Assembly: GCA_965178125.1 (NCBI GenBank)
Contig: OZ237763.1
Span: forward strand, 372,001 to 436,000
Direction: 5' to 3'
Origin: Bilabrum cf. latius
Lineage: Eukaryota
DNA: 64,000 nt
Below the pieces are notes generated by a model. The model saw nothing but the letters and a program-made list of their open reading frames with translations, made no database searches and was not told the DNA's origin. The stretch's first letter is position 1. Every line of letters starts with the position of its first letter. Shown here piece after piece: positions 11,756 to 58,786 of this stretch. Position numbers and translations under genes: made by a program.

Positions 11756-12037
11756 GTTTAGTACCCTGCTTTTGGTGTTTTCCACGAGCCGCGAAGTGTG
11801 TGTGGCTCGGTTTGGTTGGATCTTTATTTCCGGAATCGCAATTGATGGTCGCAACACTTCCTAATCTGCATATCCACACAGTGACGTGCGATTTCCAGAT
11901 GCACAACTCTCGAGTGACCGCAGGATCGGTTCGGCGATCACCAGTCGAGGTGCAGGCCTCAGATTCCCAGGACTAGCATGTCCTCATGTCCTCCAGAGAA
12001 CGCGTCTCCATCAGACCCCCGGGCCCGTCACTCGCTC

Positions 12038-17378: not shown

Positions 17379-17471
17379 GATCTTGCGTCGCAAGTGGTTG
17401 CGCGCACTTATTATTGGCTACAATTAAACCAGTATTTTGAAACGAACACAAATTCCTGTATTAAGCTCACC

Positions 17472-19274: not shown

Positions 19275-19473
19275 CGCCAACTATGCAAGCGCTCCGACTT
19301 GGCGGGTGTGGGGCGGAAGTGTGAATCGGGGGATTTGTCAGCTCGGGGTTGCCGAGCGTATCTCTGAATCCAGACAAAAGTCTGGGTACATAAAACTGAA
19401 CGAATTAGTCGTTGTAGAACTACAAGCATAAAACAATCAGGCCTTCGCCCTGTACCTCCCGATCGTCATAGAG

Positions 19474-21114
19474 TTAGTCATCGGCACCTGATTCAGAATC
19501 CACCCCGCCCTCCACTTCTTCTTCCTCCCTCTCTTCTTCCTCTTTGCCCCTGTCGTCTTCCTCCTTGCCCCCCTCCTCTTCCTCCACGTCCTCCCAGCCA
19601 TCGCTCTCCTCTGCAGTGCCGGTGCTGGCAGCTCCATCCCGAATGCCTTGATCTTCACTACCCGCCTCTCTGCCGGATTCATCGTCTTCTTCAGCACCAT
19701 CTTCATCATCGTCTTCTTCAGCGCCGTCTTCATCATCGTCTCCACCGTACACCCCATGGCTCCACAACGAATACAGCACAAAGTACGCCTTCTCGGCGGC
19801 AAGGGCAAAGGCTACTGCTTTGCTGGGGCCCCAGCCACACAGTTGCATGCCGTCGCTCAGCGCGATATCGCATCTAACCAATTGAACTGGTACTGTCGTC
19901 ATAGCCAATCCTCGTCCGGTCGGGGTGCTCGCACCACCCTGCAGTGCAGCCTCGGTCGCTTGAATCGCAGCATCGTGCAACGCCGCCGCTTCCGATGGCG
20001 ACGGCGGTGGCGCTGTCCCCTCCTCCCCTCTTGCACCTGCACCCGAAGCGGCAGCATCGCTGTGTTCCCCAACTTGTTCCCCGGGTGGTGGCACCAAAGC
20101 GCATGCCTCGGCGTGCGGCGCCCCAGCAGCCCCTACCGCCCTCAGCCTGGGCACTAGGGCCGGGCCTGCATCTCCTTTCCTGCCTGCGCCTGCTCCCTCT
20201 GCACCTGCCGTGCACGCCGACAGGCTCACTTCAAACTCGTCGACCTGGTCCTCCTCGCTACCATCTGTCCCCGGGTCAACCGGACAGCTGTACCGAATGG
20301 ACTCCACCCCGGGCCCGCCCTCGAACTCTCCGATGAATCCCAGGAAGCTCTCAATTACGTCGCTCTGGCGAACTCGACTGGCAGCTTGGGCCAGGTACGA
20401 TGCGACGGCCTCCCCAGCCACCGTGGCTGCAGCCAGGGCGCCGTGCCCGGTAGCAGGAGCAGGACCTAGTGAACCAACTGAGGAGGGACTGGGGTGCCTT
20501 TCCCGACGCCCTCTGCCGCGCTGTCGTTCCTTATTCCCGCCATCTTTGCGTGTTCGTCCGAACGTCCCGCTGCTCGATGAGCCCGGCAGCGCAAGGCCCC
20601 TGCCCCCGAATCTCCCAAGAATTGCCTTTGCGGCATCCTCCCCACCTCGCTGCAGAGCTCGTTTCAGCTCTCGTTTCTACCTCCGCTTGTCGGCCGCCCG
20701 CTTCTTCCTGGCAGCCCTCTTCTGTTTCTCGGCGTGTTCAACTGCAAGCTAAACCTTGTCCGAGCAATCGAATGGAAGCGAGCGGGGAGGAAGAACAATG
20801 ATCTCTGTCGCTCGTTTTCGCGCAGCTTGTTCGGGTTTGGTATCGGAACCAGCTTCTTTGGCATCACCAGCAGAGGCTGGTCCACCGGTTGCAGTCGCTG
20901 CTTTGAAGCTAACTAGATCCCCAATCTACAGACCTGCGCCCTTCACTGAGGCGATGTCTGTTCTTTTAAACGAATACCATTTGCTCTGATCATCTGGATG
21001 AGCGCACTTTTCCTGAGAATCAGCGATTGGATACACAAAGCCGCCGCCTCCCCACCCAAGGCTTACGATCGCCCCTCTTCGCTATTTATGCTTCAGCCAG
21101 GCAGCTGAAGCCAT
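19474..21114 (-). CDS. Putative RNA-binding protein: cold-shock/OB-like N-terminal domain, basic coiled region, dsRBD-like domain and acidic tail (546 aa; 4 TAG=Gln)
   Basis: Single frame from ATG 21114 through TAGs at 21082, 20926, 20749 and 20677 to TAA at 19474. RRGAIVSLGWGGGGFVYP...YSFKRTDI...GL[Q]IGDLVSF...RATEI looks CSD-like; CGWGPSKAVAFALAAEKAY resembles the dsRBD C-terminal helix motif. Confidence 0.6.
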
Positions 21115-21310
21115 CTACAGCGAGCTATTACCCAGGTAGTTGACTTACTTTGTTGCAGAACCACCACACTGCGCAGTTTATGCCTGGAAGGGTGGTACGA
21201 GAAGGAGATCAAAAGCACGCACCGTGACCGTGACTTGTGGTCAAACACTTTACTTACTCATCGATAATGCCATTGGATGCTTTTAATTCAACTCTGCAGC
21301 TTCTACGGCG

Positions 21311-21925
21311 TCACTGGCCAGACTTTTTCAAATGCAGCAGCAGCACCTCCTTGCAAAAGCCAATCTTCTCAAACTTCATTTGAGTACCCCCAGCTTTGTC
21401 AGGATGGTACTTCAACGACATCCTCCGGAAATTGGATTTGATTGCAGATTCTGACAGGTCATTTACCGGCAGTTCCAGCAAGTCAGCGCACTCCTGAATC
21501 ACGCGGCTGCGAGACGGGTGGCCGATCCCCTGCTTCGAACTGAATAGGCTGACAGCAACAGCAGACCCGACTGTTTTGCCCACCTGCATGCCACCAGCCC
21601 CAAATATTGCCATGCCAATGTCTGCACCAAGCCTGCGAAATTCTGGACTCGCTTCTGAGCCGAACATGCCCTGGGAGATAACCTCTGCGGTTCCAGCACC
21701 AACAGTGAAACCGAATGCCCCACCTGCTAGACCGCCAACAATTTGTCCAACAGATCCTCCTGTTTGGCATGCCACACCTACGCTCTACAGGTCCAGCTTG
21801 CCATCGTACCATTTCTCGAGAGCTTCGATCGATTCAGGTGTCATATCGCAACCGTCCTCGGCACTGGCAGTTGCAGCGCACACGAACAAAACTAAACATG
21901 CCGTCACCACTTTGATGATGTTCAT
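21311..21925 (-). CDS. Protein with signal peptide, glycine-zipper region and C-terminal DnaJ (J) domain (1 TAG=Gln)
   Basis: MNIIKVVTACLVLFVCAATASA signal; in-frame TAG at 21785; GxxxG helices; IKSNFRRMSLKYHPDKAGG contains the HPD motif; ends TGA. Confidence 0.8.
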
Positions 21926-22128
21926 AGCAATGCCATTCAATAGCTTCATTGATGTTAATGTCTTTTCGTGAAAATGGAGGCGTTCTTCCACCACTTGCAA
22001 AATACCGGAACCGTCGCTTCATTTGTGGGTCACCAACGTGCGGGCCACAGCCAGGACTTGCTCTTCAGGCGCAAGCAACTGCATCCCACAGGTACACTTT
22101 CCTTAGCGATTCAATTCGCACTCAGCAA

Positions 22129-25100
22129 TCACTGCGCACTCAGCGCCATGTAGTTCGTCCTCGCCCTGCTCCTCAGGCCCTCAGCAGCGTCGCCCGTTGC
22201 GTCCACCATGGACGCAAAGATGCGCTCTCTCTGCTTTCCGCCCGCGCTGGAGCCAGCGCCCCCTTCCTCCTCCTGGGCATCGTGCCCCCCAGCTGCTGCA
22301 GCACCTTGGGACGACACGCCCTGCTGCTCCTCCCCCTGAAGAAGCTCCCACGGATGCCCAAACTCGCCGACCACGCCATCGTCCATCACCAGGATCTTGT
22401 CCGACCCGATGACCGTGTGCAGCCTGTGCGCGATGGTCAGGATGGTCGCCCGCTTGAAATCCTCGGACACTACCTGGTGCACGAGAGCGTCGGCCTCCTG
22501 GTCCAGCGAGGCGCTGGCCTCGTCAAGGCAAAGCACGCGCACGTCGTCGGCGCGCAGCAGCACGCGGCACAGGCAGATGAGAGCGCGCTGCCCCACGCTA
22601 AAGTTCTCGCCGCTCTCCGACACGGGAGCATCCAGCGCCCTGTCGCCCTTCTCCTTGAGCAGCTCCTCCCGCTGTTCCCTGTACTCCACCACGTCGAGCT
22701 CGCCGAAGCGCATGCAGGACGACCATCCGCCCGCGGCACCGCTCGCCACCATGGCCCTGTAGGCCTCCTCCACGGAGGCGGCCGCACCGCTGGCCACGAA
22801 GCCGGCGGCTGCCTGCTCGGCAATCGCGGCGATCTCTGCCTTACGCTGGGCCACGGCCTGCCCCACGGCCACTGCTTCGGCAACGCTGTCCACCTTCCCG
22901 TCGGGGCGCGCATCGGCGGCCACCTTCTCAAGGTCGAGGGGCTCCAGCCCCGCCGCCTCTGACGCCTCGTCCATGTCCACCAGGCCCAGCCTCAGCCGTG
23001 CCTGCACTCGAGCCTGCACTGGACCCATGCCCGCGCCCTCCAGCTCCAGCACCTTGTGCTGGTAGGATCCCCCGGCCTCTGCAGCAGCCGCTTCCTCGCT
23101 CCTCGCGTTCACGAACAGTTTGGCTTCGAGGGAGGACACGGCATCGAACCGCCGGTGGAAGCGGTCGTGCAGCAGCCTGCGCACCGAGGGGCTGGTCACC
23201 GACGCGGCCGCCGACGCACCGCCCGCGGCGCCGTCCTTGGACAGCCTCGCTGCCGCGATGGTGGCATCCCTGTCAAACTTGTCGCGGGCCTCCACGAGGG
23301 CGTCCACGTCGAACCCCGAGGGCAGCTCGAAGGTCCCCTCCAGGTCCTTGGACAAGAACTCGGTCCACCGCTTCTTGATCTCGTCCTCGAGCTTGACCCT
23401 CCGCAATGCCTTCCACATGGCCGCCTCCGCCCCCTCGTCCCCCAGCTTGCCCCTGATCTCGCGGACGGGGTCCAGGTTGTCGCGCACCGTGCCGATGAAC
23501 AGCGTCGGCTCCTGCGGGATGATCGCCAACCGCCTGCGCAGCTGGCCGAGTCCCATCGAATCGACGTCCCTGCCGTCGATCACGATGCTGCCTTCCTTGC
23601 ACTTGGTCTCAACGATCCTGAAGAGGGCAGCCAGCAGGCTGGATTTGCCGGAGCCCGTCCTGCCCACCACGCCGCACGTCTCTCCGGCCTTGAGCGAGAA
23701 ATTCACGCCATGCAGTACCTCCGGCGTGTTGTCGCGGTATCTCATCTTGTACCCCTTGAAGGCCACCTCGCCCTTGCTGGGCCACGAGTCGGGCAGGTCA
23801 GGGTCGTCCTGGGATACTTCCTGCGGGGTCTGCTCCGTCACGCCCATGATCCTCTCGGCGCTGTTCATCTGGTTCTCAACCTCCGCGGCCATGCGCGTGG
23901 TCCAGTTGAGGATGCCGGTGAGGGACATGGAGTAGGTCAGCGCGAAGCCGGCGAGGCCGGCGATGCCTCCGCGGCTCTAGTACTGCGCGCTGACGATCGA
24001 GAGGACTGCAGACACGGCCACGATGAGGTTGCCCATGGTCTCTAGACGGATGGACAGCCACCTGTCGATGGCCCTCTGGGTGTACCACGCCGAGATGTTG
24101 TTTGCCACCAGGCTCTCGTTCCGCATCGCGAAGGGCTGCGCCTTGCCGAAAGCGCGGATGGTGCTGAGGCCGCCGAGCGTCTCTCCAAAGAAGGCGTAGA
24201 TGGGTCCCCTGCTCACGCCCTCGGTCCTCTTGATCTCCCTGCTGGCGTTGCGGAAGTAGCTCATGGCGAAGAAGTAGACGGCCAAGATCGGCACCATCGC
24301 CACACCGAACCAAGGCGTGGCGAACACGATTGCACCCAGAGATCCAATAACTGCGAACAACTTGAAAGAAAATGGGAATCACGAGCGTGGTGAGACTTGG
24401 CGTTGTTTTTGGGGGGCCCATATGACGTGCCAAATAGCGGGCGTGCAGCCAAACGAATGCTAGCAATGAAGGCAGCAGACGAGTCCATAGCCAGACGAAA
24501 CTCACCCAGGAAGATCATGAATGTGAACATGCCGAGGGTCTCCCCGAGCTTGATGTCCACGTCGAAGAGGTCCTTTGAGAAGCGGCTGAGGATGCGCCCC
24601 GAGGGCACAGTGTCGTGGACCGACATGGGCGCCGAGAGCACGGTCTTGTACAGCGCGTCGTGCAGCTTCCTAGAGGCAGCGATGCCCTGCCAAACGAATA
24701 GAATCAGGCGCCCGCCGTTAAGGATAGACTGGAGCACGCCCAGCGCGGCTAGGATGCCCATGTAGAAGCCGAGGCTGTAGTCGCCATCCTCGCTGGTGTT
24801 GCTCCAGAACGCGATCCACCACTGGTTTGCCAATGAGGCGAACTGGGCGAGACCGGTGGACGTCAGCAGGCCGAACGCCATGAGCATCCAGCAGTTGCTC
24901 GTCTGCAGGTACCCGATGTAGTACTTGAGCTGGACCGCGCCCTCCTCCCGGCCCTCGGCGCCGTACTGCTGCCCGGCCTGGTCCGAGGTACCCAGCTGGT
25001 TGGTGCCACTGCTTGCGGTGGCAGGAGTCTTGCCGGCGGCTGCAGGCGAGGGGCGAACCACGGATCCGGACTTGGATGTGAGGACACCCTTGGCCGCCTT

Positions 25101-28100
25101 CTTGAGGTCGGCGCTGCTGGATGCCTTGAGCGACAGCTGCGACATCTTGGCGCGGAAGCCAGCAGACCTCGCCTTTCGGTCCTCCTCGGCGCGGCCCACC
25201 GCCTCCTGCTGGGCCTCACTGACGGGCTCGGCCACATTGAACCCGTCCCTCCACCGCACCTGCACTCCGCCCGAGGCAGGGATCACCAGAGCCACCGCGC
25301 CGTCCTCCTGGCCGACAGCCAGCGACACAGCCACGGCAGAGGCGTCCGCATCAGTGCTGTCCGAGTTCTTGCCCTCGTCCTCCTCCTTCTCCTCCTCGCT
25401 CCTGCTGCCGTCCTCCTCCTGCTTGCCCTCCTCCTTTCCGGCCTCGTCATCGTCATGCGAGTCCCTCGCGGCCTGCTTGTACTGCTCCACCTTGCCCGCG
25501 AACTCGGGGTCCTGCATGAGTGCCTCGAAGGTGCCTGCTTTGACGATCCGCCCGATGCCGTCAGGGCCCTTCTCCAGCACCGCCACGCCGTCGCACTTGC
25601 TCAGCACGTGCACCTGGTGCGTGACCAGGAGGCGGGTCCTGCCGTGCATCGCATCGCGGATGCATCCCGAGAAGAGTTGCTCGGCCACGGCGGGGTCCGT
25701 CGCGGACAGCGGGTCATCTAGAGCCACCACAGAGGCGCGCGAGTAGGCGGCGCGCGCGAGTGCGACCCTCTGCTTCTGTCCCCCGCTGAGGTTCAGCCCC
25801 CTCTCCCCGATCTCAACGAGGTCGCCCTTGTCGAAGATTGCGATGTCATGGCTCAGCTGGCATGCCTCGATCACGGCGGCGTACCGCTCGGCGTCATAGG
25901 GCATACCGAACAAGATGTTGTCACGGAGGGTAGCGTTCTGAATCCACGCCGTCTGCGCCACGTAGGCCATGTCCCCGCCTACCTCCACCTGCCCGGACCC
26001 CTTGAAGAGCTCTCCCAGCACGGCAGAGCACAGGGCACTCTTACCGCTGCCCACGGGGCCGATGACGGCCCACAGCTCCCCCTTAGGGATCTCGAGGTTG
26101 ATGCCTCCCAGCACGGGCGGGACGGAGGCGGAGGCGGCCACGGCCTTCTGGGCCGCTGCCTGGGCCTTCTGCACGTCGGAAGTACCTGCCCGTGCGACAG
26201 GGGTGGGAGTGGGCATGCCACCCGCGGATGCGTCGGAGGCGAGCCTCGCCCGGTCGATCTTGATGGGGGGCGGGACACCGCCGGGGGCGCCGCCAGCTGC
26301 AGTGGCTGCGACGGCCGCGTCGGCGCTGGTGGGTGCGGGCATGGGGCCTAGGTTGGGCGTGTTCTCTGCGGTTGAATCGGCCCTAGGCTTGCTTCCGTCG
26401 GCTGGCACCGCAGCAGATTCAGAAGCGCCGCCGGCCGCAGCGCCCTTGTCCTTCTAGCTCTTCTTTCCGGCCGTCTTGTTCTTCTTCTTGTTCGACTTCT
26501 TGACCTCCACGATGGGCTTGAGCTGGCGCGCAGGATCGTGCCAGTAAAAGGTTCCATCGTTCACGCGGATACCGAGAGCGTCACCGCCGCCGGCACCCGA
26601 GGAGGCTCCTTTTTTGGCCGGTCCGTCCGAGGTCCCGTTCTTGTTCTTCTTGCTGCCGCCCGCGCCATTGTCGATGGCGAGGTAGTCGTCAATCTCCAGG
26701 CCCTGCATGAACAGCTCCACGCGGTTCAGGGAATCGGTCGCGCTGGATACCTCGCTGAGCACGCGGGGGTAGAACATGAGCGGGAAGCGCAGCAGCAGGA
26801 GGATGTTCACTGCGGTGAACACGGTAGAGCTCCTGAACGTGTCGCTAACGCTCGCGTAGGTGATGAGCGTAAACACGGCGATGATGGCCGGCGCGGTGGC
26901 GAGGAGGACCCACGCGCCCACCCCCAGCTTCGCAGCAGCCTCGATGTCCTTGAGCTCCTTTTTACGAGCCTCGCTGACCATGGACATGAAGGACTCCTCC
27001 CAGTTGTAGTACTTGATCGCCTTGATGGACGCGATGCTCTCGTTGGTCAGCTTGACGCGGCTGTCACGGAGCTTGCTCACGCGGGCCCGAATGATCATCA
27101 TGCCGATAAAGAAGCACATGTTGATGGGCACAAGAACGATGCACACGCCGAGCCCCACCATGGCGGGGCCCCAGCCAATGTAGAAAACAAGCAGCCCAAT
27201 GTAACCGAGCATCTGGTAGATGCCATCCCAGATCACGTGGATCTGCAGCATCACAGTGTCGAGCTTCTCGGCGTCTACTTGCATGAGATTCACGATCTTC
27301 CCGACAGAGGTGCCCTGGCGGGCCGCAGGAGACAGCCGCAGCGCCTTGCGGTAGATGGCAGCGGTGAGGCCGGTCCGAACCCTGTAGCCGACGCGAACCA
27401 TCTCGTGGAAGTACTGCGGGCCCAATACAAGTTTACACTTTGAAATTCAAGCGGGTAGATTGGGTATGGAAGCGCATAGATCTAGCCGAGGGTGCACACA
27501 GCTCCCAGCAGTGTATATCCGCATCGGGGAAAGCGCAAGGAAACGCAGCTACAGCCCCCTTGCGAGGGGCAGGTAGCTCAAAATCGCCAACAAGATACTA
27601 TTTCATAACAATGATGACTAAAATGCGGCCTTACCCTATTTTCGGCGAGAGTTTTAAGCGAGAGGGCGAGCAGAATCGCACCTACCCAGACATAGCCGTA
27701 CCAATCCTCAACATCCTCGTCCGAGTCTCCGCTGTACGCTTCAATAGACTCGAGAAGAAAGTTAAGAAAGATGGGCGGCAGGAACTGCAGCGTTGAGTTC
27801 ATGAGCTTCAGAAATCCGGCGTAAATGAATCGGGTGCCCATGATCTCCCTAATCGCGGACTGCACCGGGTGGTCATTCTTCGCGTTCTTTGCATCCATAA
27901 AAGACTTTTCGAACAATTTAGATACCTTTCCTGGCTTGTCATCCTCGGTAACTGGGAACATGTCGTCGTCACCGAGGCGCTTGTAGCCTTGGGTGCCGTC
28001 GGGGCGCGTCACGGTCGTGTTTGCCAACTGCATGATCTCCCCGACCCAGTAGAACACAAGGTGTGAGCAACAGCTTGCTTCATCCTCCAGGGACTGCGAA

Positions 28101-28410
28101 ATAACGAGCAGTCGAGGGAAAAGGGAGAGAAGAGCAACTACTTGCAAACTACCGGGCAAAATGGGAAACAAAATTCAATCCGTCAAGTCCAAAACAAAAT
28201 TCGCGCAGCAAAACTGATCCGTAGGCGGCGTTCATGCCCGGAACCCTTCCACAGGGTAGAATCTGCCACCGCCGTCACTGCTGTTGAAAGATTTTCCCCG
28301 GCTGAGCACAGGCCAGCACACATGACTCCAAAGCTCACAACTGGAAAGGACTTCTTCGATGCATGTTCCGCGTCATGTTGTCCGTCCGCTGGGGACGAAG
28401 CAACTGACAT
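22129..28410 (-). CDS. ABC transporter subfamily C (MRP-like), about 1886 aa; introns 28094-28338, 27414-27634, 24351-24505; 2 TAG=Gln
   Basis: TMD1 (GKIVNLMQVDA), NBD1 (GPVGSGKS, LSGGQKQR), TMD2 (PSGRILSRFSKD, RWLSIRLE), NBD2 (GRTGSGKS, FSVGQ, LDEASAS, IAHRL). TAGs at 26454 and 23977; the exon sum is divisible by 3. Confidence 0.93.
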
Positions 28411-28642
28411 GACGCTCGATATGAGCCAATTTCAAAGTGATGTCGCAGGCGGGGAAATTTGCCGCAGTGTTTCGCACGCAACATTACATTCGGAGTCTAA
28501 ATACACGGATCCGATTTAATGAGACCAAACCATTACTATCTTGCCTGTTACAATATCGAGATTATTTTTTTCCTCTTCACGAGTCGTGGGTTGTAATTTA
28601 TACACAAGTTTCCGTAGCAGACTGGCGTTTGTGTCGGTTTTC

Positions 28643-30055
28643 ATGAAGAGAAGCCGATCAGCCATGGCAGCTTCAGGATCTGGAGCTGGAGAGTCGCCGA
28701 AACGACGCCGTGGGATGAAAGACGGACCTTCAGGGAAATCCACAGAAATCAAGACTGAAACTCTTGGTCTCGGATTCGAAGAGCGTGCTTGGCGCGATGG
28801 GCACTCCGTTGTAGCAGGTGTCGATGAGGCTGGTCGTGGTCCGCTGGCTGGCCCTGTGGTTGCAGCAGCCGTAAGTATACTGCGCAGCAGCAGCTTGGCC
28901 GGGGAGTCGGACTTAGATCCGCCTGTACCAGGTGTCAGGGATAGCAAGCTGATCACGGATGAGAGCGAGCGGGAGCGTCTCTACGAGCAATTGATCGCTC
29001 ACCCGAGGATTCGATGGGGCGTGGCGGCCGTAGACCCGCGTGGGATCGAGAAGATTAACATTCTCTAGGCAGCCATGCGATCGATGGAGCTGTCTTGCCT
29101 TGATATGGCCGGTAGGTTCGAGCCGAGCGAGGCAGACGCAGCAGAGTCATCTGCTTCTGCAGCGGCAGCAGCCGCCGCTTCCTTGCCTCTTGGAGTTTAC
29201 CCGTCCTACGTATTCGTAGATGGAAACCGCATGCCGAAGCGATTCAAGGCCATGGCCGAGTGTGCTGCTGCCAGGGAACAAGGAGAAGGCGTCGGCGTCG
29301 CGGCTTCTGCTGCTGCTCCGTCTGCCCCGGCATCTAAGGCCAAAAGCAAGGGCAAGGGCAAGGGCAAGAAAATCGTCGGGCCGCCAGAACCCACAGCTCC
29401 CGCTGCCGAGTACGCTGACGGTGTGGGAGCGGGGCACAGCGCGAGGGCACTGAAAATGGGGTGGGAGCAGCTCGAGCTAGATCGGGCGCAACGGGCTTCC
29501 GGTGCTGCTGCCTCCGGCGAGGAGCTGCTGGAGCCCGCACAGGCAGTTGCTCTGCCGGCTGGTCGCAAGACAGCTCTGCTGGCAGGGCCGCCCGCCGGCT
29601 TCACTGCCGAGATGGTGATCAAGGGGGACAGCAAGGTGTATTGCATTGCGGCAGCCTCCGTGATCGCCAAGGTGACCCGAGATCGGATCATGCGCCTGAT
29701 AGACCGGAAGTATCCCCAGTACGACCTGGCCCAGCACAAGGGGTATCCCACCCCTGCCCACAAGGGGGCCGTGGTGCGGCTGGGCCCCTCCCCTGTGCAT
29801 CGCTTCTGCTTTGCGCCCATCAAAGGGAACTTTCTGTGGGTGCCAGAGGAGGGGCGGGAGGGTGCGGACAGTAAGTGCTGGGTTAGGCTTGGTGCCAGCA
29901 AGGCCAAGAAGACGAATGGCAAGGGCAAGACGTCTGCCAAGCCGGCTGCCGCTGCTGGTGGCGCGGCGTCCGGGGCGGGAGCGGCAGAGGTGGCAGCACC
30001 GCCTTCGTCGAGAGCGGCACGAGCAGCTCGGAGGGCTGCCACGAAAGGTACTTGA
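28643..30055 (+). CDS. rnhB: Ribonuclease HII, bacterial-type (470 aa; TAG 29066-29068 = Gln)
   Basis: [26 protein letters not shown][TAG]AAM, VDG, KGDSK...[19 protein letters not shown] and HR motifs; ends TGA. Confidence 0.92.
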
Positions 30056-30237
30056 TCCTTGATTTGTTGTCTGGACCGCGGGCCTCTCACACGTTGCTGT
30101 CGCCGCGCGGCTGACTTGCGGAACCACAGCGATTCGGGAACAGGTCATCGGCCCATCACATCGCTACCTTTCCCGCTCTGCTCGACTCTGGGACATCCAC
30201 GTTTCGCAACCAGAACAATAATTGATAAGTCAGGATC

Positions 30238-32145
30238 ATGGCAGCAACAGATGCTTCGACTCCTTGGAGAGCGTACGGGTCGGACCCGTCGCACGAGTAT
30301 TTTCTCATCCTGTTCTACAAATACCTTTCCATTGAAAAGCCCGATGATTTCGCGAAAGGGCAAGAAACTATGTGCGATTCCTTGGGTCTGAGAGGACGCC
30401 TCTTGATTAGTGCCGAGGGAATTAATGGGACGCTAGCCTCCAAGGGAAAGGCAGGCTTGGAAGAGTACGTTGCTAGGATGAGAGCGGACGAGAGATTCAG
30501 CGATATTGATTGGAAAGGATCCTCCGCTGGCGTGCAACCGTTCCCAGATCTTCATGTGCGCCGTGTTTCCGAAATAATCAGTACTGGCGGACAGGTCTTG
30601 CCTCCGTTCAAGCCAGGCGCGCCTCAGCCAGGGCAGAGGCTGCGCCCGGAGGATTTCGACTCCTTGTTGCGGCACGTAATCTAGTAGAAGCATGCAGACG
30701 CCACGGCTGTCGCTGCGGGTGCGAAGCGGGCGAGCGCCGACCAGCCCATGCCGGCAGAGTCTGCAAAGAAGCCGCGCACGGAAGGAGCAGCTGCTTCAGA
30801 CTCGTCGAGCCCGTCTGAAAGTGCAAGGGCCAGCACCCCTCCTTCTGCCCGCTTGGAATCACTCGGCGTGGATCCCAAGGACGTCGTGGTGCTGGATTGC
30901 AGGAACCGAGCAGAGAGCGCAATCGGCTCGTTTGAGGGAGCAGAGCCCATCCCGATGTCCACCTTCGCTCAGTTTCCAAGATGGGCACAGCAGAACAAAG
31001 ATAGAATTCAGGGGAAAGCTGCGATCATGTTTTGCACGGGAGGAGTCAGGTGCGAGAAGGCGAGCGCACTGCTCAAGCAGCTGGGCGCCAAGGAGGCCTT
31101 CCACCTCTCCGGTGGCATCCACAGGTACGTCGAGAAGTTCGGGGATGGGGGGCTGTACAAGGGAAAGAACTTCGTGTTCGACCGGAGGGTTGCCCTCGGG
31201 GCAGACGACACGAAGGCACCCGCGGTGGCAAGCAAGTCTAGCGGTGTGGCTGCTGCGGCGGCTGGTGGCCCGGCCTCCGGGGCTGGGGCTGGGGCTGGCG
31301 ACCAGAGCACCGTGCCGTTCGGTCGATGCGTGGACTGCAGCAAGCCATGGGAGAAGCTTACCGGGCGGATGGTCTGCGAGGTCTGCCGAGAGCTGGTGCT
31401 GTGCTGTGACGAGTGCACGGGGAGGGACGGCGGGGTAGCTCTGTGCGAGGACCACAGGTACCTGCGGGGGCACTACTACTGGCATCTGGAACGGTTCGGT
31501 CTGGAGGCGCTCAAGAAACAGAGGGCGGCCATGGAGACTTTCGGTCGACGAATGGATGCACAGGCGGCGCACGAGCTGGCTCTAAGTAGGACGCGCAAGC
31601 TGGCCGAGAAAGCCCTGCGAGCACAGGCTGCGAAAGAAGCGGTGGCATCTGGCAGTTCTGGACAGCCTCCCGCAGTCGGGGCGGGGGCCGGGGTAGCAAC
31701 CGAGGCACGAGCTGAACCTCCATCAGCCCCTTCTGCTTCGTCCTCTTCATCCTCGGCTTCGTCTGCTGCCGCGGTTGCGCCCTCAGCAGCTGGTCCCGAT
31801 CCGGGGGCCGGCGCGGCGCCGCCTCAAGGTGCGGAACCAACGAATCCTGAGACCGTGCAGCTCCCCCCCGCCTCCAAGAACAGGCGAAAGATGGTTCGCA
31901 GGCAGATCGCCCGATTGGACGAGCGGATCGCAGCTCTGGAAGCCGGCACTGCTTCCAGCAGCGGCACCACTGCGGCCCCCTGCCGCACCTGTGGCAGGCC
32001 AGAGTGCCGGGGCACTTGCTGGGGGTTCTGGGTGGACGAGGGGCGGGCGGCGCACCACGAATTCAGGGCTAGGGCGAAGGACCACGTTGCTGAAGGGGCT
32101 GGAGGTGCGGGCGTGGGCAGCGCGCCTGTGGCAATGGCGAGCTAA
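30238..32145 (+). CDS. Rhodanese-domain protein of the TrhO/UPF0176/TSTD2 family (635 aa; tandem TAG-TAG at 30682-30687)
   Basis: ILFYKY...LGLRGRLLISAEGINGTL, FPDLHVR, VVLDCRNRAESAIGSF, MFCTGGVRCEK, LSGGIHRY, YKGKNFVFDRR and a Cys-rich tail; ends TAA. Confidence 0.88.
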
Positions 32146-32724
32146 TACTACTTTCTTCTAGTACTACTAGTAGCAGAGCGCTGCGATGGCTGGAGGCTAC
32201 GCTGCGACATTTTGAATCGTATTTGATGTTCACTTACGATTCCCAAGTTAACATTTCTTGCGATTGCTTTTTGTTTTCAACCAATAGGGTGTGTGGCCAC
32301 TTGCTTTTGCTCGGATCGGATCAAAGTCGGCGACACGAGGTGACGCGTTAGGTTCGATCGTTTGAGGTTCGACGGAAAAGTGCCACGCGGCAGTTCTCTG
32401 CAGAAGATTTTTCAATTGGTACTGGTTCGAAGCATAATGTTTCCGATAGTGTATCGCGCAAGATCAAAGAGTGATACTTCAAGCTCAGCTTCTTGGGCGC
32501 GTACGGGGCAATACGTAGGTACCGCCCAGCAGAACAATGCTTCGGACAGGGCATCACCCGTCTCGCTTGAGATGCCTGCTTCTGTCGAGCGTGCTCACTG
32601 TAAGAAAAGAAATGATAACTACAATTAAGATTGCGCCTCATTATATTTTTCGCCAATCTACCCGGAAAATCGGCGTAGCTATGCGGAATCGCCGAGCGGC
32701 CGCAGAGAGCGGCGCCAGGGCGCG

Positions 32725-34614
32725 ATGCTCGGACGCCCCTTGAAGCCTACCGCAGCATACAATCAAGCGCCACAACCACTGCCACAAGGATTCTTCACCC
32801 CAAACAATCGTTTTTCCTGTCTCTGGGACGCAGCTAGACAGGTAGGCCTGACGCCAGCGAATGCCTACCGGAGGGTGATATCTGGCCTGAGCGGTGATAG
32901 TGGGGTAGCGCTCGTACGCTTCGAAGCGGCAGGTATTGCCGGCGACACATACAATGAATCTCGATGGGCCGTTCCATAGGAGGCGCAGAGCGCTGCTTGC
33001 TCACAGGCCGCTCTGTCGGTGGCAGGCAGCCAGGCTGCGTTCGAACTGACGGCTGCCAGCAAGGCACAAGCCGACAAGGCTTCGACCGACGAGGCCAAGA
33101 ATGACGAGGAAAAGTACAGTACCCTGTGGAATATTGGGCTTGCAGCGCTTGTCTGCTGCGTGTATGCGTCTGGTTTCTTCGTGAACTCGGCGGCCTCGAG
33201 GCTCCTCCCAGAGGAGTCCACGGGGCCTGCCCAGCTCATGGTGATGATGGCCGTGGGTAGGATCATCGGACTAGCCAGCACGTTTGCCATGCTAGCTTGC
33301 ATGGGTGGCCTGCCGTCCAAGGAACACTCGGAGCGGATGTTCTGCTCCCCGTGTGCCGGCGGAGTCGTCTCCATCTTCATCCAGATGTTTGTGCTGCTGG
33401 GCTTCATCCCATACTTCATCCTGAGCGCGACCGGTGACATCTCGGCTATCGCACCTTTGGTTGGTGTGCACAGCATGGTTCCAGTCGTGTACGGCATGCT
33501 GATCGGAGGTGAGCGGAGGACCATGCTCAAGGTTATCGCGGCTCTGCTGTCGCTCGCCTCTGTGCTTCTGCTCGGGTTTGCTGCCACGGGTGGCAACCAG
33601 GGGGCGTCGGAGGAACACAACGTAGGTATCAGCTAGAATGGCACTAGTGGGATCGATGCCGTGCAGTCGGCAGAGCAGCCCGCTGGTGGATCTGCATCAA
33701 CGGCGCAGAGTGAAGGGGGCAGCTCGCTGGGGTAGCAGCTCACGCAGTTCGGGCTGCTCGCGCTTGTGATCAGCATCTGGGGTACAACCGACCAGATTTC
33801 GAGCGGCATGGCGAGGCGGATACAGCTGTACAGCGTCATCATTACGAATCTGTTTGGCGTGATGATCGTTCTGTGCGCCGGTCTCGCGTACACCTCGTGG
33901 GTGCAGCCCGTCGGATCGTGGGGACCATTTAGCTGGACGCACGCCATGTACGTGGGTAGCAACGCGCTTGCAATCTGGGCTTGGTTTTTGTTTGTGCGCT
34001 TGGGTAAGCAGTGCGAAGCCAGCATTTTTGTGCCAATTGTGGGATCCTACCCGACTGCTACTGCGCTGCTAAGCGTGGCGATCCTCGGGGAGACGATGAC
34101 ATGGGTCAAGGTCGGGGGGCTGCTGCTAACTCTCGCTGCAATCGGTGCGCTGGGCTGGTCTGACGCGGACTCAAAGCAACAGAAGCAAAAGGAAAATGCT
34201 ACAAAAGTTGTAGCCAAGGACGGAAGCGACCAAGGCAAGCTAGACAAGGATTTGCGGTCAGTGCGTGCCGGCCTCAGCGGAGCATTCGCAGCAGCTCTGC
34301 CCGCAGACAGCTCTGTTGCGGGCCTGAGTGCCAGTGCTTCGACTGCGGATCTTGCTTCCGTGCGCGCAGAACTCTTTCCTGGTGCGGGTCTGCAGGTCGC
34401 TGACAAGATTGAGGCCTTCGCGATAGCGGGTTGTGACCCGTCCTCACGAGTAGGGAGTCCCACTGCATACGGAGGGACAGGGACCGCGCAGGCCAGTGAA
34501 AGCAAGGAAGTTGACAGAGAATGCACGACAACACGGTATGAATGCCCGTCCTTGGAAAGTGGTGGTGCAGCTGCGCCGGCCCTACATTTGCCTGCTGTCT
34601 CTGGCACTGTGTGA
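32725..34614 (+). CDS. DMT/EamA-like multi-pass membrane transporter (start uncertain; TAG at 32977, 33634, 33733)
   Basis: Two 5-TM repeats (ISAIAPL...LIGGERRT; ASIFVPIVGSYP...ILGETMTWVKVGG) joined in frame across the TAGs; ends TGA. Confidence 0.75.
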
Positions 34615-34710
34615 TTGCGGCACGCTCTGTTGCTCTTGCACAAACGATCGCAGCGACTTCATTGCGCGATTGATACCTTTAAAATGGATACTATAGACTT
34701 ATTTATAAAT

Positions 34711-37700
34711 TTATAAGATGGACAACTTATTTTCACCAACTTCTGCGTCGATCGATCCAGAATGCTCACCACCAGGCATTTCCAGAATGTCCGCAGGTCT
34801 CAGGTCGTACTCAACGAATCCTGCTGGTACGGCACTCAAGGTCTACAGCACACCTTTACTGGCGGAATTACCATCAAGTACAGTAGTGAGTGAGCGATGC
34901 AGGCTACCCAACACTGCAGACTGGTATGCGTGCTTGCCAACGTATTTGTTGGGCATGTGCCACACGGTGCCGGCGCCGTAGCCTGGCGAGCCCGGCCTCG
35001 ACCATCCAGCGTCCACCACCTTTGTAAACCCGCATGCAAAGTACGGCTCTCCCTCCGCCAACTCGATAGGCGGGTATGCCCAGTGTCTTGCGCGCCACGG
35101 TATCGGTGACATGCAGCCCGCGTGCGAGGCCATGTATCGCAGCATGTAGGATGGGAGAATGAAGCCTGCCTGATGCACGTTGACAGGAGCGTGAAGCAGA
35201 ACGTCTGGACCACAACCACGATCTTGAAGTCTTTTCGGCAAATTTCCTGTGCCAGACCACGGGTTTTTGTAGTTCTAGTTCATCTCTGTTATACAGCCTT
35301 CACGCTGCCGGTAGATTGGCCAGCCGTCGTTCAGCTCAGGGCAGCCGTTCACCAACCTCCTCTCCTTCTGCCTGGTTGCCTATGAGGCCTCTAAATATGG
35401 ATTAAGTTTTTCGTATTGCAGTAGACCGGGAACCATGAGCCTTGGTAGTCGAGGCCTGTTCCACGACTGCCCATCGGCGGTTGTGTCCATCCAAGCCGCG
35501 AGTTCCGGGCGCACCCAGTCTGCGTGGACTCGCCCGAGCACGTGCAGCAAATGTTCAAATCGAAGCAAGTGGTCCTCCTCGTACATTGCGATGACGTCAT
35601 AATCAACAGCCCGTGTGTCTGCAGAGCCGGCTGTGCTTGTCTCGTGTTGCAGAGAGGAGGATGCAGCCGCGACCACATACTGCGACCGGACATACCACGG
35701 AAACGATACGCCCAGAGATGCCGGGGCAGGTGCAATCGCCAGAGACAGTGAGATGCCTTTCGATGACCGAGCACGGTCCCAAAATGGCTGCCTTGCCGCC
35801 CAGCAGACTAGGTGCGCCCCTGCTTCCTGTGCGCTCCTCGCGCTCGTAGGCAATGTATCGTTGCTGTTCTATTGGCAGCGACCCCACGCATCCTCTACAA
35901 ATTCGGTGTATATCCCCAGTGCCTGAGAACTATTCGCAGCTTTGCTACCCCAGCAAGAGGCGGATCTCCACGCCTAGTCGCACCGCGCTTGCTTGTGACC
36001 CTGACGATTTGTGCCTATGCTTGCATTGCTGCACAGCGAAGTGTCACTTAGTGATGCGCCAGCAGCCACACGGATATCAAGTGCCACAGCAACACCGTGC
36101 CGCCTTGAGAAAGTCTCGGCCGTAGTAGAGAGCGACTGCACCACTCGCTTGGCCCAATGCGACCTGGATACCAAGTCATGCGAAAGCAACACGACCAGGG
36201 CACGGATGGTGGGGGTGTGCTTCTCCACTACTTGGACACTGTCAGTGGAGCCTGAAGGGGCAGGCATTGCGTCCACTTGCTCCTCCTTCCGTATTGCTCG
36301 AGGCGATGCATGAAGCTGGAGGTCTTCGCCTCGTGCGCTCATCTGCAGCCGCCATTCACTGTGTGGATCCAGCGGGTGAATCTTAATGTGGTCCATAGAC
36401 AGTCGAATCGAATTAGTGTCTATGACCGGGCCATCACCTCCGCTTGTAGCCGCTCGCACGCAAGTAATTGGTCGTTGCTTGTGATCCCGCGACTGGGAGC
36501 TCCGCTCCAAACCAAGTTCTTCCAGGCTCGGGATGGGCGGCTGCCATCTGGGCATGTTCTACCGCGTCAAATCTCTATGAGTTAGGATGGCTTGCGGGTC
36601 ACCAACCCACCACTCTTTCCGAAGCAGCCGGCCCATCGAGTCGTCATTACCAGAGCCACCAATTGCTGCATCTTGCTTCCCGAACTGCACGTGAAGATCC
36701 TCAGCGCCCGACTTCGGCGTGCTTACTGCAAACGTGCTAGCAATGGCACCTCTCACGTGGCCTGCACAGCGCACGTGCCGGTCAGCTGGGAAGCGGAATG
36801 GGGTAGAGGACACCTCGCCATGCAGCTTGTGCAGAGTCCTGGCGGTGGCGGCCATGCAGTCATCCAGTGTCATCGACTAGCCAGCATCATCCACTCCATT
36901 TTGAGCGTCGATTACTGCTCGCATTAAAAAAGCTGCCATTTCCTAGCTGCTCAGGTTGGAAAAATCGAAATTTGGAGTACCGACTGCTTGTCTCACTGCG
37001 TCCACCACGCAGCACGCAGCCGAGTCGGCAATCGCACTGATCCTACGCATCTTTCCGACGAACGCATTCGCAGCTGCGATCTTTATGCATACAGCATCTT
37101 CATCTGAGCTTGGCATATCGATCGACTGTGCGATGGTATTACCAACTTGAGCTGCTCCGAAAGAGTTGTCGAAGAGCCCCGGAGGCAGCGCATAGGCAGA
37201 GACCGACGGCTCTGACACGGATGGGGGGCCCGTCCATCTCTAGAGGCCCGTGCTAGAGTCGATGTGCTGGGTGTACGTGGCAGCTGGTAAGCGGCGCCGC
37301 AGAGCATGCAGGGCAAGCACAAAGTCGCAGGCTCGCGCTATCCCGGAAGGAGCAGGATCTGCTGCTGCTGCTGCTGATGTCGTTGACTTGGAGCACCACT
37401 GCACGAGGGTGTCCCAGGCGGCGTCAGTGTTACCCGGGCTAGCCATGCCTGCAGACCTGCGTGGTTGCGTCAGATAATTTAAGCTCCGACGACTCTAAAA
37501 ACCGCCTGGGCTGCAATGTGTAGTCGTACTGCCAGCGGTGCAGTTGGCCTGTGCCGGACCCATGGCCGTGCCGCCCCCCAGGTCTGACAAGATCTCAACA
37601 TGGGATCGGAGGACTTCAGCCGCTCTCCGTTGCAGCCTACGACTCGCATGATACCGGATTTCCTTTCGCAAGCTCATGCTGGCACCCGCACTGCCTGGTG

Positions 37701-38499
37701 CTTTGGAGGCATCTGCGCTGCTTGGGGCTGGATCGGCCGCAGATTCCACCGAGTCCAAAACGGGGACACCATCCGCTGCCTCCCTGAGGCCAAGGTACAC
37801 CCGCGCAACGGCGAGGTCCGGATGCAGCTGATGGTTAGATGTTAGTGGTTGCACCTTTGCAGATGGTGCATGATTTCGTTGACGGGCGAGTTCCTTTGCC
37901 AAGCCAGAGCCGAGCAGCACCTGCCTCGTGGCCTCGACCAGGGCATCGTGGGAGAGTAGGTCGGAGAGCAGCAATGTGCTTCTGCGGTCCGTACGCGCCT
38001 GTCGTATTGTCTGAGCACTGGTGCTTGCAAACGACAAAACGGCGCCGTTCCAGAGCTCTCTGGCCCGGTGCAGCAGTTGCGAGGTTCGTCGTGCCGATCG
38101 AAGCAGCGGCTGGAGCTTGCGCCGTACGGTTGGTGGCAGCTACGGGGAGGATTCTTCATGATATTTGGTCCTCTAGGAAAACTCCCTTGGCGTTGCTTCT
38201 CCCGCCGCCGCCATTCGCTCCATTTCGCGGCCCAGCATTCGCTCCATCGAGTCAAAATGGCTCCACAGCTTTGCATCTCCATCTTGGGATGCAGCTCTCG
38301 AACGGATCCAGGTTAATGCGTCATGCTGTTCTCTTCTTGTCCAATGGGACGATGGCTAGGTCAGTGCATGACTGCCATTCTGCGTGCTCGAATCTGACGC
38401 GAGATTGACGCTGCCAAGCGGGCCATTGTTGACAATACCTTTGATTGTAGGCGAAAGGAAGGCATAGAAAAGCACCAATGCTATTGTATTTCGCGGCAT
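34711..38499 (-). CDS. Large intronless secreted/Golgi-type protein (1262 aa, 13 TAG=Gln) with a possible glycosyltransferase-like C-terminal domain
   Basis: ATG 38499 starts a signal-like MPRNTIALVLFYAFLSPTIKG. One frame runs 3789 nt with 13 TAG and no internal TAA/TGA. Motifs YDVIAMYEEDHLL, PGLLQYE, NVHQAGFIL, VWHMPNKY; ends TAA. Confidence 0.75.
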
Positions 38500-38632
38500 C
38501 TATATGCCTTATACATCAAGCCACCACATTTAGTCCGACGATTGGGAACCCGGAAGTCAGCAAGCTGCGCGCGTCTCTACAAGTTGGCACAGCAATAAGC
38601 CTCGCTGCGCTGCAAAAGATCACACCCTCTCA

Positions 38633-40876: not shown

Positions 40877-43800
40877 TCACTGAATGGCTGGTCTTCGCAA
40901 TCCAAGCGGGCTGCCCCCGGCCTTCCTTAGAGTCTGCGTCATGTGCTGGCGCGCGTGCGCGTAGGCCACAGCCCCCTTGCCCGTCTGCGCGATCCTTTGG
41001 TCCCGCATGTGAGCGAATGCCTCCTCCTCATCCTCCTTGTCGTCTGCGGGCGCAGAGCCAAACTGCCGGCCCCAGGCACCGCCTGCCGCTGCGGGGGCAG
41101 TCGCTCCTGGGGTGGGCGCCCGCCCCCCGCCGCAACCCAACCCCTCCCCGTCCATGCCATACCCTCCGTACCCCCCGCCGCCCACTCGCATTCCGATGCC
41201 GCCGCCCGTACCCGTTCCCCAACCGCCACCAGTGGCACCCGAAGCCCCGCCCATGGACCGGATGGTTTCAGACGCAACGAAGGGTGAAGCCGTTGCACCC
41301 GTGCCCAAGGGTGTCCAGGAGTCGCCCAGCGCGGCCTCGGGCGTGACATTGCTGGCCATCGCGCCGCGCTCTCCGCTGGAGGTCGCAGATCCGTCCAGCT
41401 GGACACCGTTGGCGCTTGCCCAACGCTGGAATCCCTCCAGCAGCGCCCCGCGCGCGTCCTATGCGGCTGCCTCGGCCTCCCCCGCAGCCGCACGCGTATC
41501 ACGGAAGCGTCCAAACGTGTCACGGTAGGCTTTCCTCGCCTCTCTCTCTGCCTGCAGGAGCGACAGCTCTTCCTGGGTCACCACCAGATCGGGCTCTTCC
41601 TGCGGCGTGCTGCTGCCGCCTCGCGACCCGCCCTCGATTCCAATAGAGCGCGCAATGGCCTGCCACCTGGGAGCACCGCCGGTGCGCTCCGCGGCGTCCC
41701 GCAGCTGCCTCCTAAGCCCATCAATCCTCTCCTTTGCCTGGTTTACTGCGCTGGCAGAGCTCTGCGCTTCCGCGCGGCGCTGCTGCAGCCGCTTCCTTGA
41801 AAGGGCGAGCGATTCTGCCAGTCCGGAGCCAGGGGCGCCCGGCTTGCGGAACTCGTCCCATGCGCGGCGCCGGTCCATACCGCCATGCACCTGCCCCTGT
41901 AGCTGCGCTCGCCCAAAAGCAGGGCCCCCATCGTTTCCCGCACTCGTGGCCTCTTGCTTGCTCTCCTCTCCCCCGCCACCATCGAGATGGGAGCCTCTGC
42001 CGGCCCCGGTCCCGCTGCTGCTGCTGCTGCTTAAAGTTGGTTCAAACCCGAGAGCAGCTGCCTCTTGTCCCTCCAGCGCGGCGCCTACGTCTGCCCGAGC
42101 CTGGGCCTCGAGCGCGGTGGCGGGTCTAGCTGCGTGACCAGTCATAGGCCTGGCTGTCGAATCAGCCACACCGAGCCCGACCCCGTGGTCGTCTGACAGA
42201 GATCCAACCAGCTCACCCCCGCCGGCGTCAACGTGCCGCCCCCCAGCCGCACCGCCTACGCCTCCACCCATGTCTCCGGCCGCTCCAAGCCCCCCATCAG
42301 CGCCCCCTGCCCGCGCCACGGCCGAGCCCACGTCGGCCGCTCTCCTCTCGGCAGCGATGAGCCTCTCTTTCATGAGTGCCAGAGTCTCTCGCATCTTTCG
42401 AACGCTGTCAAGTTCCAGCGCATCCATCTCTTCGTCGGGTCCCCTGGCTTTCAGGAACGACTCCACTTCGCTTGCCAGCTGTGCCTGCTGCTCGGGGGTG
42501 TACTCGTCGTAGGCGGGGCCGCGCATGGCCCCACCACCGGACGGACCGGCAGAAGCTCCAGCTCCCGCACCGCCGGTGGCAGCCCCCCTTCCTGCCGCCA
42601 GTGCGGCATGCATGGCCAGTTCCTGCTTGAGCTCTCGAATGATCCTGGCCTGCTTGTGCGCGAGACGCACAGGGTCGGTGGTCATGCCTGCGGGCGCGGG
42701 CCCCGCCCCCGCCGAGTGCTGCTTCACCCTCATCATCCGCTTGGCGAGCTGCAGCGTCGACACAGTTTCTTCCAGGTGTCGAGCCTCGCACCACACGCAT
42801 GCCAGCAGCAGCGTCATCGAGGCGCCGCCCAGCGAGTCACGAAGGATGCTCGTCAGCTTGGTCTGACGGAATGGCACGTGGCCACTGCCGTCGCCTGCCG
42901 TCAGAGCCACGACGCATTGCTCCAGGAACGCGAGTGACCGGTTGATACTCATGGATTCCTTCTTGAGCGCGGGGTCCAGCATGGTCGCGGGGAGGTCTCG
43001 TGTGCCTCCGCGGCGGGTCACCATGGCCTCCGGAGGTACGTCTGCCAGCAGCGTCTTGCGCAGCCGCTCCGATCCAGCGAGATCCACGAGGTTGAGCTTG
43101 CTGTGGCGCACCCTCTCTCCCGCGCCGAGCCTGGACCGCTGCGCAACGTGCACGGTGAATATGCAGTGGGAGCGGTTAGAGCTCTTGTTGAGCAGGTGCT
43201 CGGCAGTTCTCCGTCGCAACTCCCCTTGGAAGAGCGCGTCCAATGCCTCCGTCTCTGACTTGACGGGCACTCTGGTCAGCCCTCGCACGACCACGCCCTG
43301 CGTCCGGTCATACGCCACCTAGTAGTCGGCCCCTCGCCCCACGGCGGCGGCACCAGCTGAGGACGGGGCCACTGCCCTCTGCATTCCGGTGGCTGTCGAG
43401 AGCTCGCCTCCCTGCATGGCTGCCTTCTTGAGCTCGGGTGCGACGTCCTCCAGAAGGTCGGTGATTCTTTCGTGGTATATCTCGAGGTAGGACACGGTCA
43501 CCTCGAACTGGGTGTCACGGCGGCCTGCGATTTCCTCGAATATGTGAGAGAGCGCTCGGGGCGCAACGCCCCGGCTGCGGTACTGCTTCGTGTCTCCTAT
43601 CATGGTGTACGTCTTGCCCGCACCTGTTTGTCCGTACTGCGTCGTGGAGGCGGGTATGGCGGGGTGGGTGCTGGTGGCGGTACTCTCTCGGCGGTCCAGT
43701 GTGCATGAAACGAGACAGCCTCCTTGGGCTCAAGACTGTCGAAGCAAATTCACAGCAAATACTGAGTCTCACAGCCATGATTGTCCCGCTCGTACCTGCG

Positions 43801-58522: not shown

Positions 58523-58786
58523 GTGGCACTGTACGCCGTACAAAATTTTGCTTGCTTGTCTGCAAAGTGACTTGTTTTTATTACAACGTAGATTGAGAGC
58601 TCCAACCACGCATAAGTATCTTTATGGAAGACGTGATCGCAAGCTGCAGCGTCGGAGAATTGCAACCGAAGTCAAGTTGGGACTCCAGCCGGACCTGGAC
58701 TCGGAGCTCGATTGGTTGTGCCGAGCCTCACTGTCGGCTGCCTGCAGTCACGTTTCATCCACGAAGCCAGCAATACAGCCAACAGA

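Follow-up and report, generated by a model that had tools for sequence, protein, structure and literature searches.

What do UAG and UAA mean in a stretch of eukaryotic DNA whose long reading frames are interrupted by TAG and by neither of the other two stop codons? The question is raised by 64,000 nucleotides of contig OZ237763.1 (positions 372,001 to 436,000 of the forward strand; this whole 64-kb stretch is hereafter called the window), for which a preliminary description had proposed that the two codons are decoupled, with UAA still acting as a terminator and UAG being decoded by a transfer RNA (tRNA) specific for it. The answer that the present analysis supports, and that is very probably correct, is that the window comes from the GC-rich and intron-poor nuclear genome of a protist, probably a stramenopile, in which UAG is read as glutamine (Gln) and UAA and UGA are the sole terminators. 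This mapping corresponds to NCBI translation table 15, and the window translated with that table gives the reading described below.

The first step of the argument is the distribution of the three codons in and out of frame. Codons were counted over 18 coding segments, which total 12,871 codons and had been selected for being free of in-frame TAA and TGA, leaving out as unverified the open reading frames (ORFs) at 3-1286 (+), 16492-17460 (-), 51477-52433 (-) and 61627-62565 (+) and the sulfatase exons at 39149-40686 (+). In frame, the 18 segments hold 55 TAG and not a single TAA or TGA, while frames +1 and +2 of the same segments contain 87 and 70 TAG, 34 and 44 TAA (78 together) and 213 and 244 TGA, respectively. 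The longest frame measures 912 codons when all three stops are applied and 2302 codons when TAG is taken as sense; taking TAA as sense too extends it by 74 codons only.

The second step concerns the fate of these TAG codons in transcripts, which could be followed over positions 19000-38999, where contigs of the sequencing runs X1, X5, X6 and X7 match the window. The contigs of X5, X6 and X7 are gene-sized pieces that skip 155, 221, 245 and 234 nucleotides, with the skipped pieces bounded by CT..AC or GT..AG, whereas the DNA run X1, in which the window lies in a contig of 212 kb, spans the stretch unbroken and without joints. Because of the spliced joints and the gene-sized pieces, X5 to X7 were treated as complementary DNA (cDNA)-like. 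The genes of this part of the window are the following.

19474..21114, minus strand: g19474, a protein of 546 residues with no Pfam family; four TAG (first bases 21084, 20928, 20751 and 20679); ends with TAA at 19476-19474.
21311..22018, minus strand: DnaJ-domain ORF (Pfam DnaJ, E 1.2e-7); one TAG; ends with TGA.
22129..28093, minus strand: ABCC/MRP-type ABC transporter with exons 22129-24350, 24506-27413 and 27635-28093 (Pfam ABC_membrane and ABC_tran; PDB match to ABCC2, E 9e-122); two TAG (23979, 26456); ends with TGA at 22131-22129.
24351-24505, 27414-27634 and 28094-28338, minus strand: introns of the ABCC gene, whose CT..AC-bounded joints appear in X5, X6 and X7 and not in X1; the joint 28093/28339 points to a further 5' exon beyond 28339.
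28541..30055, plus strand: bacterial-type RNase HII with long inserts (Pfam RNase_HII); one TAG (29066), in the context NIL-x-A; ends with TGA.
30238..32145, plus strand: TrhO/UPF0176 rhodanese of 635 residues (Pfam UPF0176_N, Rhodanese and Rhodanese_C; PDB match 9j5o, a tRNA uridine(34) hydroxylase); two adjacent in-frame TAG (30682, 30685); ends with TAA at 32143-32145.
32425..34614, plus strand: EamA-family transporter (Pfam EamA) with exons 32425-32599 and 32834-34614 and a GT..AG intron at 32600-32833, the joint 32599/32834 being present in X5, X6 and X7; three TAG (32977, 33634, 33733); ends with TGA at 34612-34614.
34711..38499, minus strand: g34711, a protein of 1262 residues with no Pfam family; 13 TAG; ends with TAA at 34713-34711, convergent with the EamA gene and separated from its stop by an AT-rich spacer of about 96 nucleotides.

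All 12 TAG codons of g19474 (4), ABCC (2), RNase HII (1), TrhO (2) and EamA (3) are kept in the cDNA-like contigs, and no other letters appear in the contig pieces lying over them; across the whole 20 kb only two differences were listed (20658 and 38664), neither within a TAG. The four TAG of g19474 are spanned by an X5 contig (19547-21156) that shows no other letters, both ABCC codons lie within contigs of each of the three runs, RNase HII is covered by an X5 contig (28550-30174), and TrhO, where contig depth is the highest of the region, is covered by contigs of X5 (30209-32374), X6 (30175-32106) and X7 (30168-32238). RNA editing, splicing and assembly errors confined to a single data set are therefore excluded for these five genes, and UAG is a sense codon that is retained in mature messenger RNA. 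An explanation in which the TAG codons are never translated, being edited or spliced out or reflecting pseudogenes or assembly errors, is thus refuted for these five genes and has a negligible probability for the window as a whole. Nothing was found in its favour, and it is opposed by the persistence of the codons in up to three runs, by frames that are interrupted by TAG alone and never by TGA or TAA, and by the conservation of the genes in relatives that carry in-frame TAG too.

If UAG is sense, the question becomes whether UAA has followed it. A code in which both codons mean Gln would require that TAA be scarce in frame as a result of the high G+C content, and that the TAAs at which three genes appear to end be read through to a TGA. 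TAA is indeed rare overall (223 and 245 per strand, against 525 expected from base composition), and a TGA lies 27 codons past the TAA of TrhO. Codons ending in A are, however, not so rare in the 18 segments: CAA makes up a share of 0.213 of its codon pair (92 CAA versus 339 CAG), GAA 0.288 and AAA 0.218. If TAA had the same meaning as TAG, about 15 of them should stand in frame next to the 55 TAG; the observed number is zero (P = 1.8e-6), and the off-frames hold 78. The gene g34711, which has a low G+C content at third codon positions (GC3), combines 13 TAG and no TAA with a CAA/CAG ratio of 19/27. As the segments had been preselected as free of TAA and TGA, a control was made with every TAA of the window, in any frame, that has 80 or more open codons to either side. 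In no case among these 24 TAA do both sides look like coding parts of a real gene: they fall in antisense frames of ELP1 and ABCC or in weakly scoring frames, one, at 32626, looks in-frame and belongs to the EamA intron, and one, at 48280, immediately precedes the start of the P2X-receptor-like gene A, where an adjoining (GAG)n microsatellite inflates the score.

The three TAA ends themselves speak in the same sense. The gene g19474 closes with GAT GAC TAA (19476-19474, minus strand) and TrhO with GCG AGC TAA (32143-32145, plus strand), the next in-frame stop of the latter being a TGA at 32224; in g34711 the TAA at 34713-34711 (minus strand) is followed by ATT TAT AAA TAA, so that a second TAA (34701-34699) stands four codons on, in AT-rich sequence. 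In the 150 nucleotides past the TAA the G+C content is 0.47 for g19474, 0.42 for TrhO and 0.49 for g34711, compared with about 0.60 for the window, and in TrhO GC3 is down to 0.46 in the 26 in-frame codons between TAA and the next TGA. A leave-one-out codon score falls across each TAA, from 0.63 to 0.16 (g19474), from 0.29 to -0.13 (TrhO) and from 0.32 to -0.10 (g34711); similar drops are seen past most TGA stops, and the score is noisy over such short stretches. The end of g34711 roughly coincides with that of its homologs in a weak alignment, which was not counted as evidence. Within the window, then, UAA acts as a terminator and not as a sense codon, and a code reading both UAA and UAG as Gln is highly improbable. 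These results bear out the preliminary description in what it had read from the letters, namely that no intact gene contains an internal TAA, that three genes end on TAA at 19474 (minus), 32143 (plus) and 34711 (minus), the last two being followed at once by AT-rich sequence, and that the remaining genes between 19474 and 34713 end on TGA (the DnaJ-like ORF at 21311, ABCC at 22129, RNase HII at 30053 and EamA at 34612).

The third step is the identity of the amino acid. Gln is most likely, being the best among several possible readings, and its strongest support comes from alignment of g34711 with a distant relative. A search of 1.84 billion representatives with g34711 returned 12 relatives, including P0241 (80% identity), P0242 (56%) and P0243. 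P0241 has Q at the g34711 TAG of ARCD-x-AWRSASCW, and two more TAG positions are matched by Q in P0243. The P0241 ORF as called stops exactly at the next g34711 TAG, as would be expected if TAG stood there too and the ORF had been called with the standard code. In metagenomes, a scan with P0243 confirmed no relative, and one made with a two-row alignment (A2) as query led to a single locus, L001, a contig of 2682 nucleotides with 46% identity to g34711 in the best tblastn segment. L001 is open over 894 codons with eight TAG, no TAA and no TGA, and the pattern is thus shared by at least one divergent relative. Within the conserved block R-x-N-M/L-P-R-W-x-P-P-I-P-S-L, a TAG of g34711 is matched by CAG in L001, and six codons past that position the exchange is reversed, with CAG in g34711 and TAG in L001. 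The g34711 family is small, has no Pfam match and shares a conserved C-terminal module (NVHQAGF ... HW-x-YPPIE ... EPYF-x-CGFTKVV).

Further alignments involve genes located elsewhere in the window, which are listed here together with ELP1, a gene that entered the codon counts.

2304..9185, minus strand: ELP1 homolog of 2293 codons (Pfam ELP1 beta-propellers and alpha-solenoid); four TAG, no TAA; ends with TGA.
12038..12721, minus strand: sm2, one of three tandem paralogs; three TAG; ends with TGA.
10557-11177 and 13597-14220, minus strand: the other two tandem paralogs of sm2; both end with TGA.
14894..16051, minus strand: enolase-superfamily (MR/MLE) gene (Pfam MR_MLE_C, E 2.6e-41); three TAG; ends with TGA.
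40877..43603, minus strand: last exon of a KIF9 kinesin, 908 codons (Pfam Kinesin and KIF9); two TAG; ends with TGA.
48283-50686, plus strand: P2X-receptor-like gene A (Pfam P2X_receptor); four TAG; ends with TGA.
58712..61212, plus strand: P2X-receptor-like gene B, a paralog of A (Pfam P2X_receptor); eight TAG; ends with TGA.

In P2X-B, the TAG of LLS-x-VAIV is aligned with Q both in paralog A and in human P2X1, and the TAG of sm2 in NG-x-S with Q in both tandem paralogs. In comparisons with 120 homologs, one TAG column of the enolase-superfamily gene is occupied by E in 106 sequences and by Q in 4, the nearest homolog being one with Q, and a third column is variable; the two KIF9 columns hold mostly T (40), V (35) and Q (23) in one case and E (53) and D (31) in the other. 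The RNase HII codon lies opposite a His of PDB chain 7uwe_C. When the closest aligned sequence was tallied by hand at 22 TAG positions, Q was found five times, S three times and L not once, with no other residue above three; the share of Gln among codons is about 3.8%. That UAG stands instead for some other amino acid, glutamate (Glu) being the next best candidate, is distinctly unlikely. Glu could account for the E-rich columns of the enolase-superfamily gene and KIF9 and for the E that L001 shows opposite two TAG positions of g34711. It fits poorly with the reciprocal TAG/CAG exchange inside a conserved block and with the Q shown by the ortholog P0241 (80% identity), by two sets of paralogs, by human P2X1 and by the nearest enolase homolog; moreover, Q is commonly substituted by E, N, H, K and R. 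The amino acid implied by the preliminary description, Gln, is accordingly upheld by the Q or CAG found opposite TAG in L001, P0241, P0243, the paralogs and human P2X1, and its assignment of the three codons is supported in the window and in one relative.

Regarding the mechanism, the codon table makes a simple scheme, put forward in part in the preliminary description, reasonable. UAG would be decoded by a tRNA-Gln with the anticodon CUA, unable to pair with UAA; the tRNA would have to carry CUA because UAG is read and UAA is not. Such a tRNA could arise from a copy of tRNA-Gln(CUG), the form that reads the dominant CAG, by one anticodon change. In parallel, eRF1 would have lost or weakened its recognition of G at the third position while still reading UAA and UGA. 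The same tRNA and eRF1 argument appears in Panek et al. 2017 (PMC5304391), where the eRF1 of Iotanema is described as carrying T32G in the GTS motif and that of a rhizarian as having Ala at position 69. The N-domain motifs that read the third stop base are given there as GTS, L69, TASNIKS and YxCxxxF (PMC5304391).

Against the assignment of UAG to Gln with UAA and UGA as sole stops, a number of points have to be weighed. The sample is small, consisting of one window and a 2.7-kb relative, with three TAA ends that are defined by sequence. Gene ends defined by ORFs in the window comprise 18 TGA, 3 TAA and no TAG (a fourth ORF ending with TAA, 61627-62565 (+), being unverified), and the absence of TAG is partly built in, as TAG was read through in ORF calling. 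A C-terminus matched by homologs supports a non-TAG end for KIF9 only, whose end is that of its homologs (in 120 of them, a median of 3 residues beyond the end of the query). In TrhO, a C-terminal Cys motif is common to 92 homologs, and termination at TAA is not separable from read-through to TGA because the homolog tails past the motif are bimodal (2-30 or about 105-130 residues); in TrhO and g19474, read-through is hard to see because a TGA or TAA lies within 27 and 23 codons of the TAA, respectively. With regard to the transcripts, the RNA nature of X5 to X7 is a guess, X5 being flagged as "probably DNA", and the listed contigs include 1 of the 13 TAG of g34711, parts of 35008-38342 having little or no X5 to X7 cover. 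The main result against Gln is another TAG column of the enolase-superfamily gene, occupied by N in 118 of 120 homologs; other TAG positions lie opposite M, K, R, D, T, S, H, E, N, G or A, most non-Q residues being usual exchange partners of Q. Finally, ARAGORN detected no tRNA gene in the 64 kb, and no eRF1 gene is present among the genes of the window.

Some of these points bear on an unlikely variant, in which UAG is ambiguous, meaning Gln inside genes and acting elsewhere as a context-dependent terminator. Reassigned codons also terminate in a context-dependent manner in Condylostoma or Blastocrithidia. Read-through ORF calling would extend a TAG-ended gene to the next TGA or TAA, KIF9 is the single gene whose C-terminus was checked against homologs, and the called P0241 ORF ends at a TAG position, even if this is what standard-code calling would produce. 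An ambiguous UAG sits badly, on the other hand, with 55 TAG spread across the genes, two of them adjacent in the highly covered TrhO transcript, with a coding score that holds past the TAGs and frames that stay open for up to 2293 codons; among the alignments made, there is no case of homology ending at a TAG.

Which organism, then, uses this code? The window has about 60% G+C, is poor in introns and has a eukaryotic gene content, with ELP1, an ABCC transporter, a KIF9 kinesin, an FG-GAP protein, two P2X-like receptors and an ankyrin protein, in addition to an EamA transporter, the bacterial-type RNase HII, TrhO, the enolase-superfamily enzyme, the DnaJ-domain ORF and a sulfatase fragment. It is nuclear DNA of a protist, which is probably a stramenopile outside oomycetes and ochrophytes. 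Among the 120 KIF9 matches listed, 45 have an organism in the source name, and by our own count all 45 are stramenopiles; their genera (oomycetes, brown algae, Cafeteria, pelagophytes, Triparma and others) are taken to belong to this group. In a quick KIF9 tree of 35 rows, 34 of them hand-picked from the 120 matches, the query falls outside oomycetes and ochrophytes and groups with Cafeteria and with three sequences that are unnamed or derive from transcriptomes, with a support of only 89 in the Shimodaira-Hasegawa-like approximate likelihood ratio test (SH-aLRT), a long query branch and a deviant composition. Named TrhO matches come from diatoms, oomycetes and the green alga Cymbomonas. On the basis of these KIF9 and TrhO matches, the stramenopile placement is probable, yet not settled. 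Contigs identical to the window over 19000-38999 (runs X1 and X5 to X7) occur in three studies under three coded organism labels, and the source organism may grow in cultures or together with others.

The decoupling of UAG from UAA as such is a rare change that has been in print since 2017, and the window adds a further lineage with a known mapping. According to Panek et al. 2017 (PMC5304391), the nuclear code of the fornicate Iotanema spirale reads UAG as Gln and uses UAA as the main stop. The mapping (UAG Gln, UAA and UGA stop), the logic of a CUA-only tRNA and the position outside ciliates are the same in both cases; Iotanema, however, belongs to Fornicata and is known from a transcriptome, whereas the window has stramenopile-like KIF9 and TrhO matches and consists of genomic DNA with introns. 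In McGowan et al. 2024 (PMC11687900), the UAG-only change to Gln is also attributed to Protocruzia tuzeti and two phyllopharyngean ciliate lineages. NCBI table 15, given for Blepharisma nuclei, has the same reading (TAG Gln, TAA and TGA stop), and the present genome differs from table 15 ciliates in being non-ciliate and GC-rich, with spliceosomal introns and ordinary gene spacing.

Retention of UAA as a stop next to a reassigned UAG is further described, in the same two sources, for the rhizarian exLh, in which UAG means leucine (PMC5304391), and for Scotinosphaera, in which it means serine (PMC11687900). The decoupling and the UAA and UGA stops are shared with both systems, and the amino acid differs, being Gln here: at the 22 tallied positions, the closest sequences show leucine nowhere and serine three times, against five times for Gln. 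Code 6, where UAA and UAG are both Gln, is listed in PMC11687900 for many ciliates, hexamitin diplomonads, ulvophyte algae, Streblomastix and Amoeboaphelidium. These systems share UAG as Gln, presumably through a derivative of tRNA-Gln; here UAA is not sense, with no in-frame TAA at Gln or any other position in the 12,871 codons of the window and the 894 of L001. Giant-virus metagenome-assembled genomes reading TAG as Gln appear in a catalogue (PMC13524828); they use the same codon table (code 15) and are viruses, while the window is cellular, with introns, ELP1, KIF9 and ABCC. A scan of viral contigs with the A2 alignment of the g34711 family gave no match.

A few observations concern the neighbouring genes. 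RNase HII and TrhO are adjacent bacterial-type genes, both with long Ala/Gly/Ser-rich inserts between conserved segments. In P2X-A and P2X-B the first ORF stops at an identical point (...IEYRND-E/K), so that both paralogs may have an intron at the same, conserved place. Their Pfam matches cover the two transmembrane ends only. Just upstream of P2X-A there is a long (CTC)n/(GAG)n microsatellite (about 47991-48255), which amounts to some 88 leucines in a minus-strand frame. The three tandem paralogs that include sm2 encode about 200 residues each, are rich in Gly and Ser over one stretch and end in a hydrophobic tail (...GGLLTAGVCLAGGAVVGL); sm2 and sm3 were scanned against Pfam without a family match. 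A sulfatase-like gene on the plus strand (39149-40686) is preceded by a GT..AG joint (38828-38930, plus strand) seen in one run. Two plus-strand ORFs (10372-11139 and 11865-12662) were recognized as antisense frames of real genes, and a minus-strand ORF of 488 residues (39169-40635) is probably an antisense frame of the sulfatase-like gene; all three were dropped from the counts.

As to what the finding would mean, a literature survey, from which subscription journals and supplements were absent, brought up no report of nuclear UAG reassignment, or of any changed nuclear code, in a stramenopile. It can be suggested, tentatively and with somewhat more doubt than confidence, that this is the first nuclear code change in stramenopiles, with an independent origin of UAG as Gln under retention of UAA, and that it is shared by a clade instead of being confined to a single species; sharing across the clade is proposed because in-frame TAG also occurs in relatives whose proteins are 80% and about 46% identical. 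As a mere thought, free-living protists of this kind would, if the reading is true, be a candidate host type for giant viruses in which TAG is Gln.

To our knowledge, UAA and UAG almost always change meaning jointly. Lineages that split the two show that ribosome, eRF1 and tRNAs are able to distinguish both codons, and each independent origin is a test of which eRF1 and tRNA changes are required. In a GC-rich, intron-bearing genome with such a code, the tRNA-Gln(CUA) gene and eRF1 would be directly readable, and it could be tested whether a high G+C content, with its CAG-dominant Gln usage, favours capture of UAG alone. Genes of such a genome could also be called correctly, in place of being cut at every TAG by standard-code callers, as the fragmentary P0241 to P0243 suggest.

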